NCBI RefSeq assembly: GCF_022045235.1
Contig: NW_027266343.1
Coordinates: 186,001-250,000 of the forward strand
DNA: 64,000 nt
Reading direction: 5' to 3'
Source of the DNA: Haliotis cracherodii
Taxonomy: Eukaryota
Within the stretch, counting starts at the first letter, position 1. Every line of letters starts with the position of its first letter. This document shows positions 944-42,200 of this stretch, one piece after another. The position numbers and the translations under genes were made by a program. Under the pieces are notes generated by a model, which had not been told where the DNA came from, made no database searches, and saw only the letters and a list, made by a program, of their open reading frames with translations.

Positions 944-1040
944 TGACAGGGTTAACGTCGCGTTCCAGATTTTTGCACTTATACGTGCGTGCGTGTTTGT
1001 AAGAGACTGCTTGTACGTGTGTTCGCGTGTGTGTGTGCGC

Positions 1041-1091
<51 letters not shown>

Positions 1092-1345
1092 CTTGTACTA
1101 GACTGAACTAATGCCGATGTTATAGTGCTCGCTGAGATACCATGCCGTTGTTTAACATGAATACCCCACTCAGTATACTGATTCCGAGCCGACCAGTCCT
1201 TGGTTCAGCCCATTATGGCCGAGCGCCAGGTAGGGTAACAACAAGTGCCATCTTTTAACGTCTTTTTAGTATGACACGGTCGGGGACCGAACTCCGACCT
1301 TCCGCTCTCCGGACAGACACTCTACCACTTGACCACGGAGGCGGT
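944..1345 (-). mobile_element. tRNA-derived SINE (V-SINE-like body) with internal (CA)/(CT) microsatellite
   Basis: Minus strand reads ACCGCCTCCGTGGTCAAGTGGTAGAG (A box)...GGAGTTCGGTCCCCG (B box) then GTCATACTAAAAAGACGTTAAAAGATGG. Flanked by ATCT(A/C)CAGGG at 934-943 and 1349-1358. Same family at 15890-16299 and 60003-60384. Confidence 0.85.
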
Positions 1346-1837
1346 GGGATCTCCAGGGCATCACCTGGCTGACAGCGTATCATGATCACTGACTGGACAG
1401 GCTTACACCACTGTCAATCGCTTGTCCTCATCCATGTCCAATCACGTTTTTCACAAATGTCCTTTTTTAGTATATCGCCGATCCATCCGCGATGTTTATT
1501 GAATACCTTGATGCAATGACTACATTTATTGTGATGTACGTCATAGAAGAACTGTACGTTCTGAATCACTGTGTCTGTATTGGTCACAATACACAAGTTG
1601 CAGTCATAAAACACATACCTTCTACATGTATTGGGAATGATGTGTTTCAATGTAGATTCTTGGCCTGTATCAGGATCACTCTTAAAGTTTGACGACTCAA
1701 GGAATTCCGGCACAGCTTAAGGTGTGAATTTTTATTCTTCTGTAATCTGTATTATTTTAGAAAATATATCTAGATAATAAAAAATCTGCGAGTTTCTTTG
1801 TACAGCAGCGGCGCGAAATATGCGTATGGAGGAATGG

Positions 1838-2102
1838 TTGGTTGGTTGGTTGTTTAACGCCGCACTCAGCAATATTCCAGCTATATGACGGCTGTCTGTA
1901 AAATAAACGAGTCTGACCAGACAATCCAGTGATTGACATCATGAGCATCGATCCACGCAATTGGGATCGATGACATGTATCAACCAAGTCAGCGTGCCTG
2001 ACCACCCGATCCCGTTAGTCGCCTTTTACGACAAGCATAGTCGCCTTTTACGGCAAATATGGGTTGCTGAAGACCTCTTCTATCCCGGAATCTTCACGGG
2101 TC
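1838..2102 (-). mobile_element. Short retroposon (no tRNA head, RTE-like 5' hairpin motif), (AACC)n tail, 13-bp TSD
   Basis: TATGGAGGAATGG is duplicated at 1825-1837 and 2103-2115. The site is empty in unit B (~16774-16790). Further copies lie at 61709-61970 (+) and ~59066-59263 (-). Confidence 0.9.
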
Positions 2103-3086
2103 TATGGAGGAATGGGGATATGTGGGTCTTAATGGGAAAACAAACTCGTAATCAATGTAGGGACATAATTTATGTTTGAATAAAGATATCTTAAAAGATA
2201 TATTTGCATGACTGTGATAACTTGCATGACATTTTAATTTATCTAATTTATTTCGATTCCTTTCAAAATGAAAAACAACAGAACGTCTTTTTTTCATTTT
2301 TCGAATGTTGGCTTGAAAGACATGCATGTAGCGATAATTTCGATATTTAAAGACATTTCCGTTTAGGGATTGAACTTCAGAGCTCATGCTATGATTGGCT
2401 GAAACACCTCTTCATTGATGAGACAGGCGGAGTTATGTCCCTTGTTTGAATAAGCAAAATGGCGCCGCCACTATAGTAACGCTACAGCGGCGGCGGCGGC
2501 GGATATTTTCCTCGCCGAAAACTGGCTATTATCCATGGCTACAGAGTTCTTTTAAAGGTGTAAATGTCGACTGTGTGTTTACGTTGGAGATAACCTATTC
2601 CTGATGTCAAAAAAACTTCCTTGACGCCCAACCATGACTTAGAAGCTTAGACCTGTCTGACTGCAAGACATTTTAGCAAAATTCATTCATCATAATAAAT
2701 TTTGCTGCAAGGCATGCGACCTGACGAATGGGTGGCAGTTCTAAAATGAACATACAATAATGATGTTATTCAAAACCTAAAGAAAACTCTGCTTCACATT
2801 TTACATAATGCATAAAATGCCTTCTTGTATTACCAAGATGTGTGTAATTCATCTATGAGTACCCATCCTGCGATACATACAAGTAAGTTACGGAAAGAGG
2901 CGAGTGGTGACGGATCAAGTCGAGTCGCGTATTACGGAAAGAAACGAGAGGTTACGAATGAACTTGACAGTTATTTTATTAATTGGACTCACCCAACCTT
3001 ATACCCCATCTTATGAGGAAAGCGGACTCGCCCTTAGTTACCCACATACCGTTGCTAATCGCTTCCTCGAACGTCCGCACATCCTC

Positions 3087-3092
3087 TATAAA
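3087..3092 (+). promoter_or_regulatory. Candidate TATA box of gene copy A
   Basis: TATAAA ~130 nt upstream of the ATG (3216), with a pyrimidine-rich Inr-like TTCACT near 3122-3127. Conserved in unit B (17875-17880). Confidence 0.5.
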
Positions 3093-3215
3093 TTACGTAA
3101 CAGACGCACAACGGCTTCTTCTTCACTGTATCTCGTCAGAGAAACATCGAATAATCTCTCGAAAAATCCTACGCTGTGACCACATATTCCTGAGCTGTCT
3201 GCTGAATTCTTCCTG

Positions 3216-6200
3216 ATGTCTCGGAGACTTGTCTCAGGTAAGTTTTTTAAAGTTTTTTTTATCATCCTTTAGATCTACATTAACATATTCAATTATTCTT
3301 ATTTTCACCAGATAGAGTCTAATCTAATCACGCTAGATCTACCTGCTGGATACATATTAAACATGTTAAATACGATTTGGATGTTGGAACCAGAATCGAA
3401 CGAATGTATTTCCGTTAATCTTTGTTTTGATGACAATCGATGGAAGGAAATTGTAGACATGGTAGAGAAGTTGATTGTTCCACCACTCTTTTTTTAGCGA
3501 GTCCCGTGAGAGAGGTATTCGCTGTCCTTCTTAATATTGGATAACTGGACTGTGGTTACCCCTTATTTTACATCGGTTGGTTAACTTTCGAACAATTTAA
3601 AGGTTACCGTTAGGCCTATAATAATTTCGAGGTGCTGGTGCGTTCCAGCGAACAAATGTTAGACTAAGTTATGTCGTGTTCATTCACCACCTATTTATTA
3701 GGTCGGACGGGGAAAAACGTCATCCTTTTCCATATTTTATAAGTGAGGGTAGATTTAAGTTTTATACTTTTTGCCTATCTTGTTTGTACGATGACGGAAT
3801 GTTCAGTGGATGAACGTGTCTCATCAAGTCAAATGTACCGCATATATAAACTTATAATGAAAACCAAAGCCTGTTAGGCCTAGAAATTCCGCACGGAGAA
3901 CCTTCCAAATTAAGTATTCCTTGAGATAAAACGTAGAATTTTCTTTTAATTTGTATAAAGTTATTGTTACCCAATAACTTGTTGTAAATAATCTAAATGG
4001 TTAATAACGAGCCGTACTTTTAGTTTAAAGTCAACACTTGAATGATGCATCTTCTAGGTATGAGATATTTGAGATTTTGCGGTTGAAACTAAAGGAACCA
4101 ACTACCAATACACTGTTTGTGAATTTATCTCAATTTAGTCTGTTTATTTAACTTTGCTAATACATTGAGTATTTTGATCCATATTCTGATCGACAAATGA
4201 GGTGAATATAAAAACTAAGCAATATGTAGATATACTGACACAGTACATGCAGTACTGAACAGAATGTTGAGTATATTACGAACGGGGGATAATTACGAAA
4301 TTCGTTTTACCTACATCATAAATATTGTTCGTAGAACTCAGTGAGTCTTCTTCCCGTTATTTTTTACTGTTATTATTTCCAGCAACGTACACTTGTTTGT
4401 TTGATGCTACTAATAATGTATTTTGTATCTACTATGATAATTAAAGATTTAACAAAAGCTTTTATATTTCGCCATGAATATATATGTATAGTTGTCTTCT
4501 GAAAACTATATTTGATAGGTTCTGATTAATGTTTAATTTCATATTAAAATGAATTTAATGAAGTCACTAAGTCCGCATTGATCAACTGTTGACTGTTGGG
4601 GAAACGTGCCATTACTCACGATCTGATGTAGGCTTTATTCATTTGTGTGTTGGCGGTTTATGTATTTTTTGTTTGTTTATGTTTGATATTTCCATAGCAC
4701 CTTTATTTTTTTCATAAGATACATAGATCTATGATTAACAAATTAATCATTATTTCCTTGTGTGTTAATTTGACAGGATCGGTGATAAGTTTTACACGTT
4801 TTGCACATTTTGCATTTCTTCCAAAAACACTGGTTCATTAGTTAGGCCCTAATCCATTACTGAAGTTTACCTCCTTTAAGTATAGTTACACTGAACTTCT
4901 CTCTCATAAACTGCAACAAGGTGTATCCATAACCTGTAAGATATTGTGTGAAAATCATATTCCTTGGGAAAGTGACTAGTGAGTGAGTATGGTTCTATGC
5001 CCCGTTTAGCAATATTCCAGCAATAAGTGATGACGAAATGCATTATCTGCATGAAAAAAAGCACAGCTGGAACATGCATACCTGATATGAGGATTGGATT
5101 ATAAGTGTGATAAAATCATTATTCTTTTCCATGAAGCAAACGTCAGCCATATTGGAAAGTCGTTTGACAACGACTGCAGTCACTGAGTCAGCATCTACCA
5201 ATTTCAATCTAGTCTAAATATTAAAATAAGATTATATTTATATTATTTTCATTGCCCTCATCCCCTTCCACACTCTCCACTTGATAACTGATTTTCTACA
5301 TCTTCCCATACCTACTAACAATCCCTTCCCTCCTTCCCCAGGAACGCGTCCCTCTGGGACACCCAGATCTTACCACCACCTCCCTCCCCATGTTCAATCC
5401 TCTAACAAGCGTCAGCCTAGAGGAGGCGTCTCCCCCCTCAACCGCCCTATCCCCACGCCCCATCGTAAAATCTCCCTGAACTGCCAGAGAGATCCGCCCC
5501 AGAAACACAAGCCTAAGGCTGTGAAGGTACTGAAATTATTCTTGAAAATGATGACCCAGTATATGGCATCAGTGAAATCAGTTTTAGAGAGAAAAGATGG
5601 AATCTATCAAACTGCTGGGCTTTATCATTTGAAAACGTAATCAATCATCAGTAAAATCTATCTAAACACTCACAGTAGCGGTTCTATACCACAAGGATCC
5701 CGTTTCTTCTTGTAGTTCCGTCACGAAGATAGGGCTTAAAAAAATCCACTTGTGACCTTTATCCTTTTGACTAGAACACTGTAAATCAACTGAGCAAAAG
5801 GCCAAACTGCATTGTGTAAATAATTAAATTTAACTTTTGATATTGTCATGACCTAGAAGTGTCCCTCTGTCAAGAAATCTGCTGCCCGACCTCACCCCTT
5901 GGACTACAGCAAACCCAGCTTTAAACGTCCACAGGTAGGACCTCAGTCATGGGTGCTGTGACCTCAAAATATCGTTCCCCACAGTGTAAGATCTCCATAA
6001 ATGACACCGTGGTCTCAAAAATTAACATCAACAATAACTAATAATATTATTTTCAATATAAGTCATTGCAAAACCTTATCCTGTTGGAGGCAGTTGGCGT
6101 TTTTCTTACTTCAAGGTTTTTCTTACTTCAAGGTTATTACTGTCATTGGGTTTATTGGGGTCAATGGAATTTTGTGTTTTTCTTTCACTGTATTTTCTCA

Positions 6201-7501
6201 CAATTTTTTTAACATATTTTAGGAAAGGGGTCTCCAGGTTTGGTATGATGAAGACAAGGTTAGTACTTTCATTAATGCAAGGAATTAGCTATGGCTTTAT
6301 GAGAAGTCTTTACTTCAGTATTTCTGTATTGTAATATGAAGCCCCTCTAACTTCACAATAGCTTTGGGTAAATTGCAATTCCCCATCTACATGTTGCCCC
6401 TTATGGTTTTAATACAATACAACAGACTCGTCATGGGTTGGATACATATGCTCAGCTCTGCCCTCATCACCAGATGTTCTGCCCATTCTAGGATGACAAG
6501 GACTCACCACGCCTGCATCCCTCGAGCAGGAAGAGCCGTCCCACGGAGCACCAGGCTGAGGACAGTCTGGTTCCGGAAGATGATCACTCTCCTCGTCTGC
6601 CTCCACCCTCAAGGAGGAGCCGCCACACCAAGATGAAGACAGACCACCGCATCGAGAACCAGCTGGTTCCAGTCTTTGCCCGGATGAGTCTGGAGGATGT
6701 CTCCAGGTCTGATGCTCCTGCTTCTGCTTCTGCTTCTGCTGCTGCTGCTGTTGATGTTGCTGCTGATGTTGCTTCAGAAAATCAGGAGGCTTCTTCACAG
6801 AAAGTCAGTAGTTGTTTGATTTATATTTGAGTCTCACTTGTGTGTGTCCAAATGGAAATGTCTTACATCTAATCATCACATTAATGAATGTAATGGTACT
6901 CAAGATTTAGCAATGTGGGATATGAGCACTGAAGCTTATCTGTTATTATCGACAACAACCCGGGAATATTAATAGGATCTCTAGTGACCATCATTTACAG
7001 CAAGTTTATTGAGAGGCCAAAATTATAGAGGTGTGTGTTTGACTGCTGTCCTGTTACGATTTTTTCTGTTATATTTATTATTGCTGAATATTGAGGAGAC
7101 TGATTTGAGAGCCTGCTGTTCTGCCATGATACAAGCTATGTTGTCTGTTGTAGGCCCAGGAGTGTTCTCGCAAGAGGAAGCTCGGTGATCTGAAGCAGGA
7201 GTTGAGCAACAAGCAGCGCAAGGTGGAAGCCTCCTGTCAGGAACTCCAGGCCATCATTGACAGGAAGCTGAAGGAGCTGAGACAGGAGATGGTGGAGCTG
7301 AAGCAGGAGGTGAAGGAGAGGGAGAGGAAGGAGCGGGCAGCCTTCCAGGTTACCATGGATACACAGAGTGGCCGACGCAAGGTGTGGAGGAGAAAGCAAG
7401 GCAACTCCTCTGCACAGAAGACGTCCACCGAGCCACGCCCACTAAAGAGACTGCCTGACAACTCCCATCATTCAGGGAGCGCCGAGGCAGCCTCGCAGTG
7501 A
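3216..7501 (+). CDS. Spliced gene copy A: uncharacterised 300-aa coiled-coil/low-complexity protein, putatively nuclear. Coding exons 3216-3237, 5342-5526, 6223-6258, 6492-6803, 7154-7501
   Basis: All introns are GT-AG with compatible phases (1,0,0,0), giving a 903-nt stop-free frame: MSRRLVSGTRPSGTPRSYHHLPP...ERGLQVWYDEDK-DDKDSPRLHPSSRK...AQECSRKRKLGDLKQELSNKQRKVEASCQELQAIIDRKLKELRQEMVELKQEVKERERKE...AASQ*. Perfect TACTAAC branch point at 5313-5319. Structure is fully conserved in the paralog. Confidence 0.85.
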
Positions 7502-7669
7502 CACTTCAGTGGTAAGTTGGAGTGTGCATGTTAATTAGTTTATAGTAAGATACGTAGATAGGTAGGTCTCTGTATGTAGGTAGTTGGGAGGATGGTTCCA
7601 AAGGTTTGATACAATTGACTATGTATGCAGGGTAAGTGACTGGATCAGTGGTGTATGTAGATTGGTCTA

Positions 7670-8850
7670 AATGGGTGGATGGGGTGGTTTTATGTAGGTG
7701 AGTTAAGTTGGTGGAGTGGTGATTTTATGTGGTTTGGGTAAGTGCGTGGAGTGGTGGTTTTATGTGGTTTGGGTAAGTGGGTGAAGTGGTGGTTTTATGT
7801 GGTTTGGGTAAGTGGGTGGAGTGGTGGTTTTATGTAGGTGGGTGGATGAGTGGGCCAAGTGCATGGAGTTGTGGTTTTATGGTGGTGGGTGGATGGATGG
7901 ATTAATGTGATTTGGGTAAGTGGGTGGAGTGGTGGTTTTATGTAGGTGGGTGGATGGGTGGTTTTATGTAGGTGGGTGGAGTAGTGGTTTTATGTAGGTG
8001 GGCCAAGTGGGTGGAGTGGTGGTTTTATGTAGGTGGGTGGATGGGTGGTTTTATATGGTTTGGGTAAGTGGGTGGAGTGGTGGTTTTATGTAGATGGGTG
8101 GATGGGTGGATTAATGTGGTTTGGGTAAGTGGGTGGAGTGGTGGTTTTATGTAGGTGGGCCAAGTGGGTGGATGGTTGGTTTTATGTGGTTTGGGTAAGT
8201 GGATGGAGTGGTGGTTTTATGTAGATGGGTGGATTAATGTGGTTTGGGTAAGTGGGTGGAGTAGTGGTTTTATGTAGGTGAGGGGATGAGTGGTTTTATG
8301 TGGTTTGGGTAAGTGGGTGGAGTGGTGGTTTTATGTAGATGGGTGGATGGGTGGATTAATGTGGTTTGGGTAAGTGGGTGGAGTGGTGGTTTTATGTAGG
8401 TGGGTGGATGAGTGGGTTTAGGTGGGCGAAGTGGATGGAGTAGTGGTTTTATGTAGGTGGGTTAAGTAGGATGAGTGGTGGTTTTATGTAGGTGGGTTAA
8501 GTGGGTGGAGTGGTGGTTTTATGTAGATGGGTTAAGTGGGTGGAGTGGTGGTTTTATGTAGGTGGGTTGAGTAGTGGTTTTCTGTAGGTGGGTTACGTAG
8601 GTGGAGTGTTTGTTTTATGTAGGTGGGTTAAGTGGGTGGAGTGATGGTTTTATGTAGGTGGGTTAAGGGGTTGGAGTGGTGGTTTTATGTAGGTGGGTAA
8701 GTGGTTGGAGTGGTGGTTTTATGTAGGTTGGTCAAGTAGGTGGAGTGGTGGCTTTATGTAGGTGGGTTAAGTGGGTGGAGTGGTGGTTTTATGTAGGTGA
8801 GTTTAGTCGGTGGATGGGTGGTTTTATGTAGGTGGGTTGAATGGACGGAT
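7670..8850 (+). repeat. G-rich ~35-bp minisatellite in the predicted 3'UTR intron (copy A)
   Basis: Degenerate tandem GTGGGTGGAGTGGTGGTTTTATGTAGGTGGGTTAA. It lies after the donor G|GTAAGT at 7511/7512. Confidence 0.9.
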
Positions 8851-9616
8851 GGGTGCCATTTATTAGGTAGGTACTTTCTAGCAGTAGGACAGTTAGGGGT
8901 GTTACTCGATATAGGTAATTAGCCTATGCAAATTGATTTAGAAAGAAGAATATTGGAATGTGTGAGTGGCTTCTGAACATGCTTTCATATTGTGACAGTT
9001 GCATGTATTACTGTGTATCTCTTGCCTGCTGTCTGACCTTAATGGTACCTTAATGGTACAGTGACTACATTTAGCATTGATATTTAGGAAGTCAAAACAA
9101 AGTATTCAGATTCGTTGGAGTAGTTGATGGTTGACATATATGACAATGCTTAGATTGGTTTCCCCATGCTATAGACAGGTTGTGTTGGTTGATTCTAGAC
9201 ATATGAGAAGGTTAGTGGGTGGTTATCATTTAGGTGATTTGGTAAGATTGGATTGGATTGGAAGTTGGAAAAATGAAATATGAGTTTTGTTGTCAGTGTA
9301 AAAACTAGATGGATTCATGATTCTATATAGTTAGATTAAGGTGGTTGATGATTAAGACAAGTAAGTGAATGGAATAATTATTCAGTTGGCATTAGCAGTT
9401 GGGTTAGCAGTGCTATGTTTAGTAGTTGGGTGAATGGATCTATTTAGTGGGTTAAGCTGCGGAATGGTGTCTGTGCAGGTAACTTTCAATCGTAAGAGTT
9501 TGGATGAGCGGCTCAAGTTAGGTTGGTTTAGTGGATGGTTGTGTAGGTTTGTTGGTTCGATGGACTGATGATTGTCTCTTCATAAATGTCTTCTCCCTCT
9601 CTCCTGCCTCACTTAG

Positions 9617-9750
9617 GTTTATGAATGTCTCTAAATTGTAACCTTTGCTGTAAATATTAATGTACAATTTGAAGTAGAATGATATAAACAGTAATGTCAT
9701 CTTTTAGGATCTGAGATCTAAAACAGAATAAACGAGATTTCCTTAAAAAA
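9617..9750 (+). other. Predicted terminal non-coding exon with poly(A) signal (copy A)
   Basis: Polypyrimidine tract plus AG (TCTTCTCCCTCTCTCCTGCCTCACTTAG) ends at 9616, with AATAAA at 9727-9732. The same signals occur in unit B (acceptor ending 23043, AATAAA 23154-23159). Confidence 0.5.
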
Positions 9751-10250
9751 CACTTTTCTGTTCTGTTATGAAATCATCCAGCTCAAAGGGCTGTGATGAA
9801 TATGTGCCAACACAAGTGTAATCGGATCCGTGGTCCTTCGACGTAAATGTTGGTATCATTACTTTCACCCAATATATATATATGTCATTATTCACATATA
9901 TATGGCTCATATAATTTGCAATTGATGAAGTCATCTGATATCCTGTGAGCTGCATCTGAGACATCTTCAGTTTCTGTTAACACAGTCTCCCTCTACCATT
10001 CCTCCGGCTTGATTTATAAAACCTTACGCAGGATGCACATGTATATACCCCTCATGATACCGCGACAACAAGTTTATCTTGCTGACGTGTTTCATTCTGC
10101 CTTTGTAAAAGTATTAAATAAATTGAAAATCTACAGAAAGGAGCTGTTCAAGTGAGCTGAATTATAACTTGTGCTGTGTCACATGACTTTCATTGACTTG
10201 TAAGTTGTAGACAGCTTGCAGTTTTTTTTTTGTAACGGGGTATGAGTGAT

Positions 10251-11440
10251 GTATTCTCCCTCTCAGAAATGCATGTGCAGCCTGCTTTCCTCTTTGCTGG
10301 GTATAAGGAATTAAGTCTCCCTCTCAGATATCCATGTGCAGTCTGTTTTCCTCGTAGCTGGGTATAAGGAATTAAGTCTCCCTCTCAGAAATCCATGTGC
10401 AGTCTGTTTTCCTCGTAGCTGGGTATATGGGATCTATTCTCCCTCTCAGAAATCCATGTGCAGCCTGTTTTCCTCGTAGCTGGGTATAAGGGATTTTTTC
10501 TCCCTCTCAGAATCCATGTGCAGCCTGTTTTCCTTGTAGCTGGGTATATGGGATTTATTCTCCATCTCAGAATCCATGTGCAGCCTGTTTTCCTTGTAGC
10601 TGGGTATATGGGATTTATTCTCCCTCTCAGAATCCATGTGCAGCCTGTTTTCCTTGTAGCTGGGTATATGGGATTTATTCTCCCTCTCTGAAAACCATGT
10701 GCAGCCTGGTTTCCTTGTAGCTGGGTATATGGGATTTATTCTCCCTCTCAGAAATCCAAGTACAGCCTGTTTTCTTTGGGTGAGACATTGTACAAAAATT
10801 AAAACAGATTCAAAATTAATATATAAACAGCTATTTGATTGAGCAGAGGTTAGCTTGTACTATATCACGTGGCTTTCATTGACTCGGAAAAACGTGTTGC
10901 CTTTTGCTTAGAAACTAGGTATAAGGGATTTTTTCTCCCTCTCAGAATCCATGTGCAGCCTGTTTTCCTTGTAGCTGGGTATATGGGATTTATTCTCCAT
11001 CTCAGAATCCATGTGCAGCCTGTTTTCCTTGTAGCTGGGTATATGGGATTTATTCTCCCTCTCAGAATCCATGTGCAGCCTGTTTTCCTTGTAGCTGGGT
11101 ATATGGGATTTATTCTCCCTCTCTGAAAACCATGTGCAGCCTGGTTTCCTTGTAGCTGGGTATATGGGATTTATTCTCCCTCTCAGAAATCCAAGTACAG
11201 CCTGTTTTCTTTGGGTGAGACATTGTACAAAAATTAAAACAGATTCAAAATTAATATATAAACAGCTATTTGATTGAGCAGAGGTTAGCTTGTACTATAT
11301 CACGTGGCTTTCATTGACTCGGAAAAACGTGTTGCCTTTTGCTTAGAAACTAGGTATAAGGGATTTATTCTGAATCTCAGAAAGCCACGTGCACCATGAC
11401 TTCCTCTTTGTGAGGTAAAAAGGCATTTATTCGCCCGCTG
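10251..11440 (+). repeat. ~60-bp minisatellite including a 435-bp tandem duplication (10483-10917 / 10918-11352)
   Basis: Unit TTATTCTCCCTCTCAGAAATCCATGTGCAGCCTGTTTTCCTYGTAGCTGGGTATAWGGGA. GGTATAAGGGA anchors at 10483, 10918 and 11353. Confidence 0.92.
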
Positions 11441-11750
11441 AGAAATTTATTTCCCTCCCAAGGCGGGATACATTGTATATTATCAAGGTCACATGAACCA
11501 ATCAGATCTCGTCATTCTGACATGGATGCAAGATAAAACTCAACGAACCTTTGCATTAGTTTTCTTTTGAAGGTGTTTTTCTACTGGCTTACATATTTAA
11601 AAAACATATTCCTACCAATAGGGGTAGCTATTAGTCTGGCTGAATTTCAACAGACTGAAGCCACTTTAGTTTCACAATTCACAAATATGCATGACACTTA
11701 TTGAACATGTAACCAGTATCTAATATTTTACCTCCCATGCTGAATATTTC

Positions 11751-14700
11751 ATACCTTTACCCTCTTTCCTTCCTTTTCCCTCCACAATGCCATTTCCTTC
11801 CTTCTCCCTCTACAATGCCTGTCCCTTCTTCTTCTTCTCCCACATCCATCCCTTAACCCTCTTTTCCCCAACCCATCTCTTACTCCTCCTCGACCATACC
11901 CATCCCTTCCTCCTCTACCAAACCCATCTCTTCAACCCCCTCTACCATACCCATCCCTTCCTCCCCGTCTTCCATACCCAACCCTTCACCCTCTTCTACC
12001 ATACCCATTCCTTCCTCCTCTATCACTACCACACCCATCCCTTCCTCCTCTACTAACATACCCATCCCTTCCTCCATCTATCATACCCATCCCTTCCCTC
12101 CCATCTATCATACCCATCCCTTCCTCCTCTACTAACATACCCATCCCTTCCTCCTCCTCCTCCTCTACCATACCCATCTATTCTTCCTCCTCTTCCATAC
12201 CCATCCCTTCATCGTCCTCTACCATACCTATCCCTTCTTCGTCTCACACACCAATCCCTTAACCCTCTTTTCCCCAACCCATCTCTTACACCCTCCTCTA
12301 CAATATCCATCCCTTCCTCTTCCTCTACCAAACCCATCCCTTCCTCCTCTACCATACCTATCCCCTCCTTCTACCTCCTCCTCCTCTACCATACCTATCC
12401 CTTCCACCTCCTCCACCATACCCATTCCTTCCTCCTCCTCCACCATACCCATCCCTTTCTCCTCCTCCTTCTCCTCCTCAACCAAACGCATCCCTTCCTC
12501 CTCCTCTACCATACCCATCCCTTCCACCTCCTCTTCCATACCTATTCTTTCCTCCTCCTCTACCATACCTATCCCCTCCTTCTCCTCCTCCTCTTTCATA
12601 CCCATCCCTTCATCGTCCTCTACCATACCTATCCCTTCTTCGTCTCACACACCCATCCCTTAACCCTCTTTTCCCCAACCCATCTCTTACACCCTCCTCT
12701 ACAATATCCATCCCTTCCTCCTCCTCTACCAAACCCATCCCTTCCTCCTCTACCATACCTATCCCCTCCTTCTACCTCATCCTCCTCTACCATACCCATC
12801 CCTTCCACCTCCTCTTCCATACCCATTCCTTCCTCCACCTCCACCATACCCATCCCTTTCTCCTCCTCCTCAACCAAACGCATCCCTTCCTCCTCCTCTA
12901 CCATACCCATCCCTTCCACCTCCTCTTCCATACCCATTCTTTCCTCCTCCTCTACCATACCTATCCCCTCCTTCTCCTCCTCCTCTACCATACCCACCCT
13001 TTCTCCTCCTCCTCATCAACCAAATGCATCCCTTCCTCCTCCTCAACCATACCCATCCCTTCCACCTCCTCTTCCATACCCATTCCTTCCTCCTCCTCTA
13101 GCATACCTAGCATACCTATCCCCTCCTTCTCCTCCTCCTCTTCCCTTCATCCTCCTCTTCTATACCATCCCTTCCTCCTCCTCTACCATACCACCCCTTC
13201 ACCCTCCTCTTCCACACCCATCCCTTCCTCCTCCTCTACCATACCCATCCCTTCACCCTCCTCTTCTATACCCATCCCTTCCTCCTCTACCATACCCATC
13301 CCTTCCATACCATCCCTTCCTTCCCCTCTTCCATACCATCCCTTCACCCTCCTCTTCCGTACCCATCCGTTCCTCCTCCTCCAATGCCATACCCATACCT
13401 TGCCCCTCCTCTACCATACCCATCCCTACACCCTCCTCTTCCAAACCAATCCCTTCTTCTTCGTATTCCATACCCATCCCTTCATCCTCCTCTTCTATAC
13501 CCATCCCTTCCTCTTCCTATACCATGCCCATCCCTTCCTCCTCCTATACCACACCCATCCCTTCCTCTTCCATACTAATCCCTTTCTCCCTCCACTAACA
13601 TACCCATCCCTTTCTCCTCCTCCTCTACCACACCCACCCCTTCACCCTTTTCTACCATACCAATCCCTTTATCCTCCTCTTCCATACCCATTCATTCCTC
13701 CTCCTCTACCATACTCACCCTTCCTGCTCCTCCCCTCTACAAAACCCGACCCTTCCTCTTCCTCTTCCATACCCATCCCTTCCTCTTCCTCTGCCATTCC
13801 CATCCCTTTCTCATCTTCTACCCTAACCATCTCTTCCTCTTCCTGGACCATACCCATCCATTCCTCCTCCTCTTCCAAACCCATCCCTTCCTCCCCCTCT
13901 TCCACACCATCCCTTCATCCTCCTCTTCTATACCCATCCCTTCCTCCTCTTATACCATGCCCATTCATTCCTCCTCCTCCTCCTCCTATATTATAGCCAT
14001 CCCTTCCTCTTCCTCTTCCATACAAATCCCTTCCTCCTCCTCTACAATACAAATCCTTTTCTCCTCCACTAACATACCCATCCCTTCCTCTTCCTCCTCT
14101 ACCATTCCCATCTGTTCCTCCTCTTCCATGCCCATCCCTTCACCCTCCTCTACCATACCCACCCCTTCCTCCTCCTCCTCCTCCTCCTCTACCAAACCCA
14201 TCCCTTCCTCCTCCTCCTCCTCCTCCTCTACCATACCCACCCCTTCCTCCTCCTCCTCCTCTACTATTCCCATGCCTTCCTCCTCCTCTTCCATACCCAT
14301 CACTTCACCCCCCTCTACAATATTTACCCCTTCAACCTTTAACCTCCTCTTCCATACCCATCCCTTTATCCCCCTCTACAATATTTATCCCTTCCTCCTC
14401 CTCTACCATACCCATCCCTTCCTCCTTCTCGACCATACACATCACTTCCACCTCTTATACCATACCCATCCCTTCATCCTCCTCTTCCATACCCATTCAT
14501 TCCTCCTCCTCTACCATACTCACCCTTCCTGTCCATCCCTTCCTCCTCCTCTACCATACCCATCCCTTCCTCCTACTAAACCACACCCATCCCTTCCTCC
14601 TCCTCCTCTACCAAACCCATCCCCCCCCCCCCACTCTACCATAACCATCCCTACACCCTCCTCTTCCACACCAATCCCTTCCTCTTTTTATTCCATATTC

Positions 14701-15523
14701 ATCCCTTCATCCTCCTCTCCACACCCAAATTCCTCTACCATACCCATCCCTTCCACACCCAAATTCCTCTACCATACTCATCCCTTCCTCTTCCTCTTCG
14801 TTACCCAGCTCTTCCTCCTCCAGAACCATACCCATCCCTTCCTACCCCTCATCCATACCAAATCCCTTCACCCTCCTCTACCATGCCCATCCCTTCCCCC
14901 TCCTCTACCATACCCATCCCTTCCTCCTCTTCGACCATACCCATCACTTCCTCCTCCTCTGCCATACCCATCCCTACACCGTTTTCTTCCATACCCATCC
15001 CTTCATCATCCTCTCCACACCCAAATTCCTCTACCATACCCATCCCTTCCACACCCAAACTCCTCTACCATACTCATCCCTTCCTCTTCCTCTCCACACC
15101 CATCCCTTAACCCTCCTATACCATACCTATCCCTTCCTCCTCCTCTTCGATACTAATCCCTTCCTCCTCCTCTACCACACCCATCCCTTCCTCCTCCTAT
15201 ACAATATTCATCCCTTCCTCCTCCTCCTCCTATACCATACCCATCCCTTTCTCCTCCTCTTCGATACTAATCACTTCCTCCTCCTCTATCACACCCATCC
15301 CTTCCTCCTCCTCCTATACCACACCCATTCCTTTCTCCTCCTCTACCATGCCCATCCCTACACCGTCCTCTTCCATACCCATCCCTTCCTCCTCCTTTAC
15401 AATACCCATCCCTTCCTCCTCCTCCTCCTATACCATACCCATCCCTTTCTCCTCCTCTTCAATACTAATCCCTTCCTCCTCCTCTGTCACACCCATCCCT
15501 TGCTTCTCCATCTATCATACCCA
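11751..15523 (+). repeat. Pyrimidine-rich ~27-bp satellite, array 1 (~3.8 kb)
   Basis: Monomer CCCTT(CCT)nCTACCATACCCAT with variable CCT number and almost no G on the + strand. Confidence 0.97.
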
Positions 15524-15889
15524 TGGAGATGGAGAACTTGTGACCACGTGACACAAAGATCAGTGAAGAGCAGTTTCTTACTAAAAAAGCAAATGGATTT
15601 TGTTTTTTTTGTTTCTCCAAAATCTGGGGGTTTTTTTTGTAAGGTGTCATTTTCGCTATAACCCCTTGACGTCGCCCTCATCAATGTGATGTCTCTTGTT
15701 GAGTGATTGAATACAATGCTGTTTAACGCCGCCATCAGGACCAGCATATACCACGGCATTTACAGACACCGAACATATTCCACGCCAGGGGGTTCGGTGA
15801 CATGCAATCATCCATGTTTTATGCCATTTGATTCTCGGATCTCTGAGGAACAAGCGCTACTATGGATCTCTACTTCTGAATCTCCAGGG

Positions 15890-15980
15890 TGACAGGGTTT
15901 AACGTCGCGTTCAAGATTTTTGCACTTATACGTGCTTGCGTGTTTGTGTGAGACTGCTTGTACGTGTACGTGTGTGTGTG

Positions 15981-16012
<32 letters not shown>

Positions 16013-16299
16013 TGCGTGCGCGTGTGTGTGTGAGTGTTAGTGAGAGACTGTACTAGTCCGAACTAATGCCGATGTTATAGTGCTCGCTGAGATACCATGC
16101 CGTTGTTTAACAAGAATACCCCACTCAGTATACTGAATCCGAGCCGACCAGTCCTTGATTCAGCCCAATAAGGCCGAGCGCCAGGTAGGGTAACAACAAG
16201 TGCCATCTTTTAACGTCTTTTGGTATGACACGGTCGGGGATCGAACTCCGACCTTCCGCTCTCCGGGCAGACGCTCCACCACTCGACCACGGAGGCGGT
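15890..16299 (-). mobile_element. tRNA-derived SINE, duplicated copy of 944-1345
   Basis: A box TGGTCGAGTGG and B box GGAGTTCGATCCC on the minus strand. Perfect 10-bp TSD ATCTCCAGGG at 15880-15889 and 16303-16312. Confidence 0.87.
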
Positions 16300-18005
16300 C
16301 GGATCTCCAGGGCATTACCTGGCTGAGAGAGTTTCATGATCACTGAATGGACCGGCTTACACCACTGTCGCTTTTCCTCATCCATGTCCAATCACGTTTT
16401 TCACAAATGTCCTTTTTAGTGTATCGCCGATCCATCCGCGATGTTTATTGCATGCCATGGTGCAATGACTACATTTATTGTGATGTACGTCTTAGAAGAA
16501 CTGTAAGTTCTGAATCACTGTGTTTGTATTGGTCACAATACACAAGTTGCAGTCATAAAACACATACCTTCTACATGTATTTGGAATGCTGTGTTTCAAT
16601 GTAGATTCTTGGCCTGTATCAGGATCACTCTTAAGGTTTGACGACTCAAGGAATTCCAGCACAGCTTAAAGTGTGAATTTTTATTCTTCTGTAATCTGTA
16701 TTATTTTAGAAAATATATCTAGATAATAAAAAATCTGCGAGTTTCTTTGTACAGCAGCGGCGCGAAATATGCGTATGGAGGGATCGGGGATGTGTGGGTC
16801 TTAATGGGAAAACAAAGCTCGTAATAAAAGTAGGGACATAATGTATGTTTGAATAAAGATATCTTAAAAGGTATATTTTCAGTGCTGTGATAACTTACAT
16901 GGCATTTTAATTTATCTAATTTATTTCGATTCCTTTCAAAATGAAAAACAACAGAACGTCTTTTTTTCATTTTTCGAATGTTGACTTGAAAAACATGTGT
17001 ATGTAGAGATAGTTTCGATATTTAAAGACATTTCCGTTTAGGGATTGAACTTCAGAGCTCATGATATGAACGGCTGAAACACCTCTAATTGATGAGACAG
17101 GCAGAGTTATGTCCCTTGTTTGAATAGCAAAATGGCGCCGCCACTATAGTAACGCTACAGCGGCGACGGCGGATATTTTCCTCGCCGAAAACTGGCTATT
17201 ATCCATGGCTACATATTTCTTTTAAAGGTGAAAATGTAGGCTGTGTATTTACGTTGGAGATAACATATTCCTGATGTCAGAAGAACTTCCTTGACGCTCA
17301 ACCATGACTTAGAAGCTTAGACCTGTCTGACTGCAAGACATTTTAGCAAATTTCATTCACCATAATAAATTTTGCTGCAAGGCATGCGACCTGACGAATG
17401 GGTGGCAGTTCTAAAATGCACAAACAAAAATAATGTCATTCAAAAAAAACCTAAAGAAAACTCTGCTTCATGTATGGATCCGATTAACATTTGAAAATTT
17501 CGCATAAAACTCAAGTAAGGTGATGTTTGAACGATTTGAATCATATTTGTGCACGGATGTCCGCGGATAGAATCTGTGCTTTTCGTTTTACAAAATGCAT
17601 AAAATAGCCTCTATGTATTACCAAGATGTGTGTAAGTCATCTATGAGTACCCATCCTGCGATACATACAAGTAAGTTACGGAAAGGGGCGAGTGGATACG
17701 GATCAACTCGAATCGCGTATTACGGAAAGAAACGAGAGGTTACGAATGAACTTGACAGTTATTTTATTAATTGGACTCACCCAACCTTATACCCCATCTT
17801 ATGAGGAAAGCGGACTCGCCCTTAGTTACCAACATACCGTTGCTAATCGCTTCCTCGAACGTCCGCACATCCTCTATAAATTACGTAACAGACGCATAAC
17901 GGCTTCTTCTTCACTGTATCTCGTCAGTAAGAAACATCGAATAATCTCTCGAAAAATCCTACGCTGTGACCACATATTCCTGAGCTGTCTGCTGAATTCT
18001 TCCTG

Positions 18006-21000
18006 ATGTCTCGGAGACTGGTCTCAGGTAAGTTTTTTTTTTTTTTATCATCCTTTAGATCTACATTAACATATTCAATTATTCTTATTTTCACCAGATA
18101 GTCTAATCACGCTAGATCTACCTGCTGGATACATATTAAACATGTTGAATACGATTTAGATGTTGGAACCAGAATGTATTTCCGTTAATCTTTGTTTTGA
18201 TGACAATCGATGGAAGGAAATTGTAGACATGGTAGAGAAGTTGATTGTTCCACCACTCTTTTTTTAGCGAGTCCCGTGAGAGAGGTATTCGCTTTCTTTC
18301 TTAATATTGGATAACTGGACTGTGGTTACCCCTTATTTTACATTGGTTGGTTAACTTTCGAACAATGTGAAGGTTACCGTTAGGCCTATAATAATTTCGA
18401 GGTGCTGGTGCGTTCCAGCGAACAAATGTTAGACTATGTTATGTCGTGTTCATTCACCACCTATTTATTAGGTCGGACGGGGAAAAACGTCATCCTTTTC
18501 CATATTTTATAAGTGAGGGTAGATCTAAGATTTATACTTTTTGCCTATCTTAAAAAAATGTTTGTACGATGACGGAATATTCAGTGGATGAACGTGTCTC
18601 ATCAAGTCAAATTTACCGCATATATAAACTTATAATGAAAAACAAAGCCTGTTAGGCCTAGAAATTCCGCTCGGAGAACCTTCCAAATTAAGTATTCCTT
18701 GGGAAAGTGACCAGTGAGTGAGTATGGTTCTATGCCCCGTTTAGCAATATTCCAGCAATAAGTGATGACGAAATGCATTATCTGCATGAAAAAAAGCACA
18801 TCTGGAATATGCATACCTGATATGAGGATTGGATTATAAGTGTGATAAAATCATTATTCTTTTCCATGAAGCAAAAGTCAGCCATATTGGAAAGTCGTTT
18901 GACAACGACTGCAGTCAGCATCTACCAATTTCAATCTAGTCTAAATATTATATAAGTTTATATTTATATTATTTTCATTGCCCTCATCACCTTCCACACT
19001 CTCCACTTGATAACTGATTTTCTACACCTTCCCATACCTACTAACAATCCCTCCTTCCCCAGGATCGCGTCCCTCTGGGACACCCAGATCTTACCACCAC
19101 CTCCCTCCCCATGTTCGATCCTCCAACAAGCGTCAGCCAATAGGAGGCGTCTCCCCCCTCAACCGCCCTATCCCCACGCCCCATCGTAAAATCTCCCTGA
19201 ACTGCCAGAGAGACCCGCCCCAGAAACACAAGCCTAAGGCTGTGAAGGTACTGAAATTATTTCAAAAAATAATGACCCACTATATGGCATCAGTGAAATC
19301 AGTTTTAGAGAGAAAAGATGGAATCTATCAAACTGCTGGGCTTTATCATCTGAAAACGTAAACAATCATCAGTAGTTCCTTCACGAAAATAGGGCTTAAA
19401 AAAATCCACTTGTGACCTTTATCCTTTTGACTAGAACACTGTAAATCAACTGAGCAAAAGGCGAAACTACACTGTGTAAATAATTAAATTTAACTTTTGA
19501 TATTATCATGACCTAGAAGTGTCCCTCTGTCAAGAAATCTGCTGGCCGCCCCCACCCCTTGGACTACAGCAAACCCAGCTTTAAACATCCACAGGTAGGA
19601 CCTCAGTCATGGGTGCGGTGACCTCAGAATATCGTTCCCCATAGTGTAGGACCTCCATAAATGACACTGTGGCCTCAAAAATTAACATCAACAATAACTA
19701 ATAATATTTTTTTCAACATAAGTCATTGCAAAACCTTTTCCTGTTGGAGGCAGTTGGCGTTTTTCTTACTTCAAGGTTTTTCTTACTTCAAGGTTATTAC
19801 TGTTGGGTTCAATGGAATTTTGTGTTTTTCTTTCACTGTATACTCTCACAATTTTTAAAACATATTTTAGGAAAGGGGTCTCCGGGTTTGGTACGATGAA
19901 GACAAGGTAAGTACTGTCATTAATGCAAGGACACATTAGCTATGGCTTTATGAGAAGTCTTTGCTTCAGTATTTCTGTATTGTAAAATGAAGCCTCCTTA
20001 GCTCCACATTAGCTTTGGGTAAATTGCAATTGGCCATCCACATGTTGCCCCTTATGGTTCTAATACAATACAACAAACATGTCACGGGTGGTAGACATAT
20101 GCTCAACTCTGCCCTCATCACCAGATGTTCTGCCCATTCTAGGATGACAAGGACTCTCCACGCCTGCATCCCTCGAGCAGGACGAGCCGTCCCACGGAGC
20201 ACCAGGCTGAGGACAGTCTGGTTCCGGAAGATGATCACTCTCCTCATCTGCCTCCTCCCTCAAGGAGGAGCCGCCACACCAAGCTGAAGACAGACCACCG
20301 CATCGAGAACCAGCTGGTTCCAGTCTTTGCCCGGATGAGTCTGGAGGAGGTCTCCAGGTCTGATGTTGCTGCTGCTGCTTCTGCTTCTGCTGCTGCTGCT
20401 GATGTTGCTTCAGAGAATCAGGAGGCTTCTTCACAGAAAGTCAGTAGTTGTTTGATTTAGATTTGATTCTCACTTGCGTGTGTCCAAATGGAAATGTCTT
20501 ACATCTAGTCATTACATTAATGAATGTAATGCTACTCAAGATTTAGCATTGTGGGATATGAGCACTGATGCTTATCTGCAATTATCGACAACAATATTGA
20601 TAGAATCTCTAGTGACCATCATTTACAGCAAGTTTATTGAGAGGCCAAAATTATAGAGATGTGTGTTTGACTCTGCTGTCCTGTTACTATGAAAGCTATT
20701 TTTTGTGTAATATTGAAATTGCTGAATTTTGAGGAGACTGATTTGAGAGCCTGCTGTTCTGCCATGATACAAGCTATGTTGTCTGTTGTAGGCCCAGGAG
20801 TGTTCTCGCAAGAGGAAGCTCGGTGATCTGAAGCAGGAGTTGAGCAACAAGCAGCGCAAGGTGGAAGCCTCCTGTCAGGAACTCCAGGCCATCATTGACA
20901 GGAAGCTGAAGGAGCTGAGACAGGAGATGGTGGAGCTGAAGCAGGAGGTGAAGGAGAGGGAGAGGAAGGAGAGGGCAGCCTTCCAGGTTACCATGGATAC

Positions 21001-21139
21001 ACAGAGTGGCCGACGCAAGGTGTGGAGGAGAAAGCAAGGCAACTCCTCTGCACAGAAGACGTCCACCGAGCCACGCCCACTAAAGAGACTGCCTGACAAC
21101 TCCCATCATTCAGGGAGCACCGAGGCAGCCTCGCAGTGA
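18006..21139 (+). CDS. Spliced gene copy B: 295-aa paralog. Coding exons 18006-18027, 19063-19247, 19871-19906, 20143-20439, 20792-21139
   Basis: Same exon sizes as copy A (22, 185, 36, 348 nt) except exon 4, which is 15 nt shorter in frame within the Ala tract. All splice sites are intact and there are no stops. Confidence 0.85.
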
Positions 21140-21339
21140 CACTTCAGTGGTAAGTTGGAGTGTGCATGTTAGCATTAATATTGTTGAAAGATGGATAGGT
21201 ATATGTCGGTGTCAGTACGTAGTAGAGTGGATGGTTCTATTTATGGTTGGGTGAAATTAGAAATTGTGGGCGAGTGAGAATTTGTATGTTTCAGGTTGAG
21301 TAGATGAGATTTTTTATGGTGGTAGGCTTGGTTGGATTT

Positions 21340-22290
21340 AGAAAGTGGGTGAAGGGTGGTTTTATGTAGAAGCATTAAGTGGGTGAAGTCGTGGTTTTAT
21401 GTAGGTGGTGGTTTTATTCAGGTTGGTTAAGTGGGTGGAGCGGCGGTTTTATGTAGGTGGGAAGGTAGGTCGAGAGGTGGTTTTATGCAGGTTGGTTGAG
21501 TGGGTGGAGTGGTGGTTTTATGTAGGTGGGTTAAGTGGGTGGAGTGGTGGTTTTATGTAGGTGCATTAAGTGGGTGGAGTGGTGGTTTTATGTAGGTGGG
21601 TTGAAACGGTGGATGGATGGATTTATGTAGGTGCATTAAGTGGGTGAAGAAGTGGTTTTATGTAGGTGTCTTAAGTGGGTGGAGTGGTGGTTTTTTACAG
21701 GTGGTTTGAATTGGTGGATGGATTGATTTTTGTAGGTGGGTTAAGTGGGTGGAGTGGTGGCCTTATGTATGTCGGTTAAGTGGGCGCAATGGTGGTTTTA
21801 TGTAGGTTGATTAAGTGGGTGGAGTGGTGGTTTTATGTATGTGGGTTACGTGTGTGGATGGGTGGGTATTTTTTAGGTGGGTTAAATGGGTGTATGGGTG
21901 GTTTTATGTAGATGGGTTAAGTGGGTTGATGGGTGGTTTTTTTGTAGGTAGGTTAAGTGGGTGGAGTGGTGGTTTTATGTAAGTAGGTTAAGTGGGTGGA
22001 ATGGTGGTTTAATGTAGGTGAGTTAAGTGGGTGGAGTGGTGAAAATATGTAGGTGGGTTAAGTGGGTGGAGTGGTGAAAAGATGTAGGTGGGTTAAGTGG
22101 ATGGAGTGGTGGTTTTATGTAGGTGGGTTAAGTGGGTGGAGTGGTGAAATTACGGAGGTGGGTTAAGTGGGTGGAGTGGTGGCTTAATGAAGGTGGGTTA
22201 AGTGGGTGGAGTGCTGGTTTTATGTAGGTGTGTTTAGTCAGTGGATGGGTGGTTTTATGTAGGTGGGTTGAATGGACGGATGGGTGCCTT
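21340..22290 (+). repeat. G-rich ~35-bp minisatellite (copy B)
   Basis: Same consensus as 7670-8850, with different variant monomers. Confidence 0.9.
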
Positions 22291-23349
22291 TAATTAGGTA
22301 GGTACTTTCTGGCAGTAGGACAGTTAGAGGTGTTACTCGATATAGGTAATAAGTCTATGTGAATTGATGTAGAAGAATATTGGAATGTCTGAGTGGCTTC
22401 TGAACATGCTTTCATATTGTGACAGTTGCATGTATTACTGTGTATCTCTTGCCTGCTGTCTGACCTTAATGGTACCTTAATGGTACTGTGACTACATTTA
22501 GCATTGATATTTAGGAAGTCAAAACAAAGTATTCAGATTCGTTGGAGTAGTCGATGGTTGACATATATGACAATGCTTAGATTGGTTTCCCCATGCTATA
22601 GACAGATTGTGTTGGTTGATTCTAGACATATGAGAAGGTTAGTGGGTGGTTATCATTTAGGTGATTTGGTAAGATTGGATTGGATTGGAAGTTGGAAAAA
22701 TGAAATATGAGTTTCATTGTCAGTGTAAAAACTAGATGGATTCATGATTCTATACAGTTAGATTAAGGTGGTTGATGATTAAGACAAGTAAGTGAATGGA
22801 ATAATTATTCAGTTGGCATTAGCAGTTGGGTTAGCAGTGCTATGTTTAGTAGTTGGGTGAATGGATCTATTTAGTGGGTTAAGCTGCGGAATGGTGTCTG
22901 TGCAGGTAACTTTCAATCGTAAGAGTTTGGATGAGCGGCTCAAGTTAGGTTGGTTTAGTGGATGGTTGTGTAGGTTTGTTGGTTCGATGGACTGATGATT
23001 GTCTCTTCATAAATGTCTTCTCCCTCTCTCCTGCCTCACTTAGGTTTATGAATGTCTCTAAATTGTAACCTTTGCTGTAAATATTAATGTACAATTTGAA
23101 GTAGAATTATATAAACAGTAATGTCATCTTTTAGGATCTGAGATCTAAAACAGAATAAACAAGATTTCCTTAAAAAACACTTTTCTGTTCTGTTATGAAA
23201 TCATCCAGCTCAAAGGGCTGTGATGAATATGTGCCAACACAAGTGTAATCAGATCCGTGGTCCTTCGACGTAAATGTTGGTATCATTACGTTCACCCAAT
23301 ATATATATGTCATTATTCACATATATATATATATATGGCTCATATAATT

Positions 23350-24195
23350 ATCCCCCGCCACGAAGTCCGTCACATTTCGTTTCCGGAGCAGATCTTGAAA
23401 ACCGTACCATATTTCTTCACCAAACTTGGCACATAGATAGATCTAATGGTGAACTGGTGCCTTTTGATAGTTTGGGATTTTTATAAAAATTATTTTTGAG
23501 TTTCCATGGCAACGACTTTGATTTAGACTGAAAATGGCGGTAGACCTCGTTTCCGGAGCAGATCTTGAAAACCGTACCATATTTCTTCACCAAACTTGGC
23601 ACATAGATAGGTCTAGTGGTGAACTGGTGCCTTTTGATAGTTTGGCATTTTTAAAAAAGTTATTTTTCGAGTTTCCATGGCAACGACTTTGTTTTAGACT
23701 GAAAATGGCAGTAGTCCTCGTTTCCGGAGCAGAGCTTGAAAACCGTACCATATTTCTTCACCAAACTTGGCACATAGATAGATCTAGGGGTGAGCTGGAG
23801 CCTTTTGATAGTTTGGCATTTTTAAAAACAATATTTTTTTAGTTTCCATGGCACCGACTTTGATTTAGACTGAAAATGGCAGTAGTCCTCGTTTCCGGAG
23901 CAGATCTTGAGAACCGTACCATTTTTCTTCACCATATTTTGCACATTGATAGGTCTAGTGGTGAACTGGTGCCTTTGGATAGTTTTGGATTTTTAGAAGT
24001 TATTTTTCGAGTGTCCATGGCAATAACTTTGAGTTAGACTGAAAATGGAGGTAGTCCTCGTTTCCGGAGCAGATCTTGAAAAACGTAGTATATTTCTTTA
24101 CAAAAAGGCCCAGTGAACATAGTTCACAGGAGCTAATGCATTGCACACACCCGACATGTCATATTGGCGGGGGATGTGAGTATTTCATGCTTGTT
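23350..24195 (+). mobile_element. Helentron/HINE-like non-autonomous element carrying ~4.2 x 170-bp internal tandem repeats
   Basis: Absent from unit A (empty site ATAATTTGCAA at ~9911-9921) and inserted in a T run. Subterminal inverted repeat ATCCCCCGCCA (23350) / TGGCGGGGGAT (24165-24175), followed by a short 3' tail. GTCCGTC remnant near the 5' end. Core repeat starts at 23378, 23548, 23719, 23890 and 24059. Confidence 0.75.
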
Positions 24196-24500
24196 TGCAA
24201 TTGATGAAGTCATCTGATATCCTGTGAGCTGCATCTGAGACATCTTCAGTTTCTGTTAACACAGTCTCCCTCTACCATTCCTCCGGCTTAATTTATAAAA
24301 CATTATGCAGGATGCACATATACCCCTCAGGATACCGTGACAACAAATTTATCTTGCTGACGTGTTTCATTCTGCCTTTGTAAAAGTATTAGATAAATTG
24401 AAAATCTACAGAAAGGAGCTGTTCAAGTGAGCTGAACTTGACTTTCATTGACTTGTCAACAGCTTGCAGATTTTCCATTTGTAGCGGGGTATGAGTGATG

Positions 24501-42157: not shown

Positions 42158-42160
<3 letters not shown>

Positions 42161-42200
<40 letters not shown>
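42161..42200 (+). repeat. (CA)n microsatellite
   Basis: About 18 CA units seen directly. Confidence 0.95.

Follow-up and report, generated by a model that had tools for sequence, protein, structure and literature searches.

A tandem pair of abalone coiled-coil genes with a possible splice-switched Arg/Pro/Ser-rich front end

Taxonomically restricted coiled-coil families arranged in tandem are a known kind of gene, and the Slx, Sly and Xlr genes of the mouse, which carry the Cor1 domain, are multi-copy, lineage-restricted examples from the germline. The genes considered here form a pair in a 64-kb window (the whole stretch of DNA analysed) from the abalone Haliotis cracherodii, contig NW_027266343.1, positions 186,001 to 250,000 of the forward strand; coordinates below count from the first letter of this window. 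The pair resembles the mouse families in encoding small basic coiled-coil proteins, in standing in tandem arrays and in the turnover of copies between species, and it differs from them in that the abalone proteins give no Cor1 match in Pfam. Both genes are members of an uncharacterised Haliotis family already in databases, whose RefSeq proteins are multi-copy in H. asinina and lack the N-terminal extension of 145-171 residues described below. A mechanistic parallel is offered by C/EBP-beta, whose long (LAP) and N-terminally truncated (LIP) forms have the basic region and coiled coil at the C-terminus in common, with a short upstream open reading frame (ORF) taking part in start choice (PMC5976626). 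The likeness would be one of working and not of membership: long and short abalone forms would likewise share a C-terminal basic cluster and helix, and, whereas C/EBP-beta is a single exon that switches by initiation, in the abalone genes splicing creates or removes the upstream ORF. The reading preferred here, at a probability of roughly 0.45, is that the pair encodes a nuclear coiled-coil adaptor of about 150 residues (aa), on which splicing switches the Arg/Pro/Ser-rich front end of 145-171 residues on or off.

The five-exon structure proposed in the original prediction for both duplication units was recovered in full: all eight introns of the two copies are GT-AG, and the joined exons form stop-free frames of 300 codons in copy 1 and 295 in copy 2. 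Three elements had been overlooked, namely a cassette exon at 5857-5934, a skip from exon 1 to exon 4, and a likely intron in the 3' untranslated region (UTR) after 7511. The parts of the two genes are as follows.

3087..3092, + strand: putative core promoter TATAAA, recognised in the sequence
3216..3237, + strand: copy 1 exon 1, coding part, from ATG 3216; open frame
5342..5526, + strand: copy 1 exon 2, 185 nt, Arg/Pro/Ser-rich extension; open frame
5857..5934, + strand: copy 1 cassette exon 2b, 78 nt
6223..6258, + strand: copy 1 exon 3, 36 nt, symmetric; open frame
6492..6683, + strand: copy 1 exon 4, 5' part, preceding the annotated start, with SP and SR/RS motifs and an 84-nt internal repeat
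6684..6803, + strand: copy 1 exon 4, 3' part, with ATG 6684 (Met146) and an acidic/Ala tract; start of all eight RefSeq homologues
7154..7511, + strand: copy 1 exon 5, with basic cluster, predicted helix, predicted hairpin and tail
9617..9750, + strand: copy 1 terminal 3' UTR exon, AATAAA at 9727, end approximate; prediction only
18006..18027, + strand: copy 2 exon 1, coding part; open frame
19063..19247, + strand: copy 2 exon 2; open frame
19517..19594, + strand: copy 2 cassette exon 2b, with conserved splice sites and an open frame
19871..19906, + strand: copy 2 exon 3; open frame
20143..20439, + strand: copy 2 exon 4, ATG 20335 corresponding to Met146, Ala tract 15 nt shorter
20792..21149, + strand: copy 2 exon 5, stop at 21137-21139
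23044..23177, + strand: copy 2 terminal exon, AATAAA at 23154; prediction only

Splicing is seen in the reads of relatives. Twenty-one sequencing runs were found by shared words, 18 of them holding 11-31% of the words and three (organism H) next to none; four of the 21, from organisms other than the source, were aligned to 2900-7600 at 85% likeness. No run is recorded as RNA, 'RNA-like' being a program's guess, and the run contigs show the presence of joints, not their level or tissue; depths were not used to rank isoforms. GT-AG joints occur in three of the four aligned runs (three studies, three organisms), and the fourth gives none and behaves as DNA-like. The joint between exons 4 and 5 (6803/7154) was assembled in X1, X3 and X5, that between exons 3 and 4 (6258/6492) in X1 and X5, and that between exons 1 and 2 (3237/5342) in X1, one of the three RNA-like runs. 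Two of these three, X1 and X3, carry the skip from exon 1 directly to exon 4 (3237/6492). In X3, moreover, joints at 3235/5856 (exon 1 to about 5857) and 5934/6223 (into exon 3) together delimit the 78-nt exon 2b, whose main frame both copies keep open. At the 3' end of copy 1 the stop codon is 7499-7501 and a donor follows 7511, 10 nt beyond the stop, from which a 3' UTR intron probably starts, as predicted from the sequence; the contigs of X5 and X15 continue beyond 7511, up to 7533. Among other features of the runs, non-canonical skips (3807-3891, 3955-5136 and 6841-7127) occur alike in the DNA-like X15 and in RNA-like runs, a pattern that suggests additional paralogues, or alleles, carrying deletions in their introns. 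Depth in X1 over introns 1 and 2 (3528-6200, outside the bin of a short interspersed nuclear element, SINE) is about 54-170, at least that of exon 5, for which retained introns, unspliced RNA and the presence of DNA in the run are all possible causes.

Skipping changes the frame. A transcription start is predicted some 25-30 nt downstream of the TATAAA at 3087, and on that inferred start site ATG 3216 is the sole ATG of exon 1. With exon 2 included, this ATG gives 288, 300 or 326 codons in copy 1 and 295 in copy 2 (321 with exon 2b); exon 2 is the sole exon that restores the main frame. With exon 2 skipped, ATG 3216 opens an upstream ORF of 8 (exons 1-4), 15/16 (1-3) or 29 (1-2b) codons. Only ATG 6633 (Met129, missing from copy 2) or ATG 6684 could then start the main frame, giving 155 and 150 aa. 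Under the preferred reading, transcripts with exon 2 would be read through from ATG 3216 into the long forms of 300/326 aa (copy 1) and 295/321 aa (copy 2), and in those lacking it the 8-29-codon ORF would precede a short form begun at ATG 6684 by leaky scanning or reinitiation. In the exon 1-4 transcript (3230-3237 joined to 6492-6500), an out-of-frame ORF of 47 codons begins with an ATG that overlaps the stop codon of the 8-codon ORF, to which the main frame is +1. An antizyme-type +1 frameshift at this junction, though possible on paper, is unsupported, as is coupled reinitiation. A TTG in exon 1 that shares its frame with exon 4 was considered as a near-cognate start and rejected, since copy 2 has TGG at that place and 3214-3216 is an in-frame TGA.

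Comparison of the copies bears on which parts are constrained. The coding sequence as a whole differs by 9 synonymous and 12 non-synonymous changes (dN/dS 0.40, Fisher P 0.036). Outside the Ala tract, recomputation returned the 9 synonymous and 9 non-synonymous changes that had been counted by eye (dN/dS 0.29, Fisher P 0.010), in keeping with the claim that both copies are constrained. As also reported, a single in-frame indel, of 15 nt, separates the coding sequences, against 15 indels in the four introns (11 of them not multiples of three, one of 1043 nt), at a mean intron divergence of 4.3%. The constraint is clearest after the Ala tract, where 128 codons hold 2 synonymous and 1 replacement change, a replacement rate of 0.4% (1 in 270-281 sites) versus the intron mean (P < 1e-4). 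Conservation across three species agrees, and the core of about 150 aa is strongly constrained.

In the extension the coding signal is weaker, though consistent. Over its 145 codons, synonymous and replacement changes number 7 each (ratio 0.33-0.38, P 0.04-0.06), rising to 9 each with exon 2b (P 0.018-0.033), and its two other frames show 1/13 and 3/10 synonymous/replacement changes and 3-9 stops; an open 145-codon frame arises by chance in about 2% of composition-matched sequences. The internal repeat noticed in the original prediction occupies 84 nt in the 5' part of exon 4, with 10 of 15 residues identical and 9 of 16 differences at third codon positions. In the main frame the proportion of synonymous differences (pS) is 0.63 and of non-synonymous differences (pN) 0.26, the order being reversed in the other frames, for a 15-codon stretch that was itself chosen by similarity. 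The synonymous excess and the repeat together indicate that the extension was once protein-coding; that it is so today rests on borderline statistics. Non-coding divergence between the copies ranges over 0-9%, from 0 of 99 positions in the 5' UTR (3116-3215) and 1-2% around the predicted last exon (8860-9916) to 5-9% in introns 2-4, and the low values at the two ends could reflect either constraint or gene conversion.

The original prediction had described the genes as hidden and orphan-like. They are neither, since RefSeq already holds eight homologues from three abalone species. Exon 5, searched with phmmer against 1.84 billion representatives, gave four matches, one of them strong (E 3.8e-46), an uncharacterised H. 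asinina protein that belongs to a cluster of five on one 52.85-Mb contig. Another search brought the H. asinina proteins to six, all on the one contig (XP_067656259/300/308/309/887 and XP_067658077), and contributed one each from H. rufescens (XP_046343213.2, labelled 'stress response protein NST1-like') and H. rubra (LOC124262229). All eight are 142-149 aa long and start at the equivalent of Met146; over the whole short form the window copies are 94-95% identical to the H. rufescens protein and 75-80% to the others, and homologues and window copies share start, motifs and end. The 300-aa product of the original prediction stands as a possible splice isoform with moderate evidence, and the annotated and most conserved product is its C-terminal half of about 150 aa from Met146.

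Lineage restriction, as claimed, holds in that the named relatives are confined to Haliotis. A profile search with 8000 scored candidates returned the same four clusters and P0007, a protein from a 642-bp ENA contig that is colinear with exon 5 at 34.5% identity, in which the hairpin motif is the best-kept part and whose N-terminal half alone scores above shuffles against three of four homologues. This diverged colinear relative makes the family older than the Haliotis sequences found; P0007 carries no taxon label, and short low-complexity proteins can escape such searches. P0005 and P0006, which matched over 41 and 32 residues (E 3e-6 and 5e-4), were discarded as noise from repeats or coiled coils. 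Metagenome scans gave no relatives, with none among 190 viral and 560 metagenome pattern matches, and there was no phage match. The tree joins the window copies to H. rufescens (100/99) and, weakly, to each other (83/81), and it unites five H. asinina copies (89/92). Twenty-six variants were picked from 40 listed for the aligned runs: 12 lie inside a deletion of copy 2, another 7 are sites where copy 2 agrees with the other runs, and at the remaining 7 it shares the base of copy 1 (3 of them against all four runs). Tree and variants fit repeated lineage-level duplication or conversion, a process that is unproven. The literature search met no paper naming any of six of the family's accessions or linking Haliotis with NST1, supplements such as abalone expression tables lying outside its scope.

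The short form is basic (isoelectric point 9.5-9.6) and has no hydrophobic segment, the highest 19-residue hydropathy being 1.07, in the Ala tract. An AlphaFold2 model of P0004 from an eight-sequence alignment (predicted local distance difference test 75, predicted template modelling score 0.41) has a helix at 15-95, strands at 97-101 and 108-112, and disordered ends. The helix bears a heptad stripe with one register shift, and P0012 and P0014 lack exactly 7 residues within it; the X1 contig over 7203-7410 has 21 gap letters, a size equal to that deletion. Across the eight homologues, 20 of 23 columns are invariant in the basic cluster RK-x10-KQRK, which fits the bipartite nuclear localization pattern, and 18 of 23 in the hairpin region with GRRKVWRRK. 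A homodimer prediction scored 0.01 against a mark of 0.32, the alignment not being used, and is evidence neither way. The motifs KEN, extended destruction box, RVxF and PxVxL are not present. All five S/T-P sites fall within the extension, which also has 7-9 SR/RS dipeptides; on these motifs the long-form extension would probably be kinase-regulated. Both forms would reach the nucleus by way of RK-x10-KQRK, a likely location as judged from motifs, and on the model they would pair through the helix, the hairpin motif contacting chromatin, RNA or a partner.

No family could be assigned, as the original prediction also found. Pfam gave no family match for the exon pieces (E up to 1) or for five homologues (E up to 0.1), Foldseek had no match at E up to 0.001, VIA-align reached a best Z of 6.2, with none of 48,161 chains at 8 or above and generic long helices only, and the ESM Atlas offered no usable match. 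NST1 membership was rejected: P0013 has only three sub-threshold, unrelated Pfam matches, and the NST1 family is presumably in Pfam. The NST1-like label of the H. rufescens protein probably reflects composition. Membership in Cor1/Xlr/SYCP3 was set aside as well, the Pfam scans showing no row for Cor1, which we assume Pfam to include. For an origin from a transposon or virus, the Pfam scans showed no transposase, gag, ORF1 or viral family above threshold, and the genes have spliceosomal introns.

Several points count against a splice-switched adaptor. The two protein forms are deduced from sequence and transcript joints. H. rufescens and H. rubra each have four accessions for one short protein, and the long form was not found among 163 candidate proteins of 203-2000 aa. 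The joint between exons 2 and 3 (5526/6223), the only one of the four originally predicted junctions not seen in RNA-like runs, is absent among the 15 of 20 joints listed. At 85% likeness and with reads of other organisms, the joints may stem from different paralogues. The context of ATG 6684 is weak (C at -3), and 2-3 ATGs with A at -3 precede it in the skip transcript, which counts against efficient initiation of the short form. Neutral simulations leave the extension frame open in the two copies in about 6% of cases, and the copies differ there at 14 of 435 nt (3.2%), a value close to the mean for introns. Non-coding divergence being so uneven, local gene conversion could mimic constraint.

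The weak context of ATG 6684 and the stronger out-of-frame ATGs upstream of it favour a possible, if doubtful, alternative, in which the long protein alone is functional, skip transcripts are an unproductive off-switch acting through the upstream ORF and nonsense-mediated decay, and the RefSeq proteins of about 150 aa are an artefact of taking the longest ATG frame. The signature of old coding sequence carried by the repeat ahead of Met146 speaks for it too, as do exons 2b and 3, symmetric and open in frame. It must contend, however, with three annotated species that have no long form, with a skip junction assembled in two of the three RNA-like runs, and with the start M-S-L-E, invariant in all eight homologues amid neighbouring residues that vary, though annotation from the first in-frame ATG would enrich for it likewise.

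The converse, that the short protein alone is functional today, exons 1 to 4a being a variable 5' UTR and the extension a decaying remnant open by luck, is unlikely. It draws on the shortness of all eight database proteins, on the intron-like divergence of the extension, on the loss of Met129 from copy 2 and on X5, which differs at 6 of 178 letters over 6528-6705 vs 2 of 156 over 7378-7533. Opposed to it are the confinement of the synonymous excess to the main frame, the low neutral survival of the open frame, the junction of exon 1 to exon 2 in X1, and an exon 2 free of indels in the X1 and X5 records with placeable gaps.

The splice-switched adaptor could also be carried much further. One may envisage, though it is distinctly improbable, abalone-born nuclear chromatin or germline regulators built on a new helix-plus-basic-hairpin module and amplifying independently in the satellite-rich DNA of several species, in which an exon skip turns a start codon into an upstream ORF and flips a phospho-regulated long form against an opposing short one, a C/EBP-like switch made from non-homologous parts and possibly serving zygotic activation or genetic conflict.

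Very improbable is a degenerate basic leucine zipper (bZIP) factor, a dimerising inhibitor in the manner of the short C/EBP-family proteins. The basic cluster does run on into the heptad helix, and the cluster may resemble the basic regions of Jun or CHOP. Long and short forms with a common C-terminal helix parallel C/EBP-beta LAP/LIP (PMC5976626). The candidate fails on membership: there is no bZIP in Pfam and none among four PDB sequence matches at E up to 1, the basic motif N-x7-R/K-x9-L is absent from all five proteins, and the hydrophobic stripe begins inside the basic cluster. In the fold comparison the one long helix of the model matched the Pap1 bZIP at Z 5.9 (root-mean-square deviation 2.8 over 65 aligned residues), a score that dozens of unrelated helices share. 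That the copies, 95-97% alike and adjacent, are alleles of one gene set in tandem by the assembly is scarcely credible, given a window without N, a sharp satellite-to-unique junction at 15525/15526, introns that differ by substitution and by indels, one of 1043 nt, and the six copies on one H. asinina contig.

By self-BLAST the genes stand in a direct duplication, with the stretch from 575 to 11 kb aligning to 15526-25 kb in segments 88-97% identical, giving tandem units of about 15 kb with one gene copy each; these two are the only family copies in the window. The left boundary is sharp (575 corresponds to 15526), and unit 2 begins directly after a CT-rich satellite.

575..15525, + strand: duplication unit 1, with upstream DNA, gene copy 1, minisatellites and CT-rich satellite (self-BLAST)
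15526..25234, + strand: duplication unit 2, non-satellite part, its right end unresolvable inside satellite (self-BLAST)

This satellite, with a 27-bp period, fills about 29 kb of the window (11796-15524, 25234-39991 and 43505-54362) and joins the two gene units. It is interrupted at 39992-43504 by a 3.5-kb insertion with SINE pieces at its flanks and inverted ends (40062-40142 vs 43079-43159, 90%) bearing 8/16-bp arrays, which looks like a non-autonomous DNA element. A 35-bp G/T-rich minisatellite lies inside the predicted 3' UTR intron of both copies (7668-8829 and 21405-22269). Downstream are 61-bp arrays (10230-11382 and 24481-25235), with a 435-bp duplication at 99% in unit 1, and a 171-bp array in unit 2 only (23377-24105); 62-bp and 51-bp arrays stand farther right (54372-55145 and 62713-63985). 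On the minus strand, 56965-57828 is a 287-codon frame for a transposase of Tc1/mariner type (Pfam DDE_3, E 1.8e-15; HTH_Tnp_Tc3_2, E 7.3e-10). Over a SINE fragment at 4978-5025, which looks like a Haliotis repeat, depth sums to 50,000-120,000 in each of the four aligned runs. Rfam gave no matches across 500-25300.

The new elements are a description of the family, exon 2b, and a long frame and a skip that changes the reading frame, neither of which current annotations show; the one functional label that the family carries, NST1-like, lacks support. For now these genes count among the many taxonomically restricted coiled-coil genes. A role in the germline or early embryo is a guess from their multi-copy, lineage-restricted pattern, and the turnover of copies makes the family a candidate for such a factor in a genus that is farmed and partly endangered. 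If both protein forms are made, the pair would offer a compact test case for how a lineage-restricted gene gains regulated isoforms.

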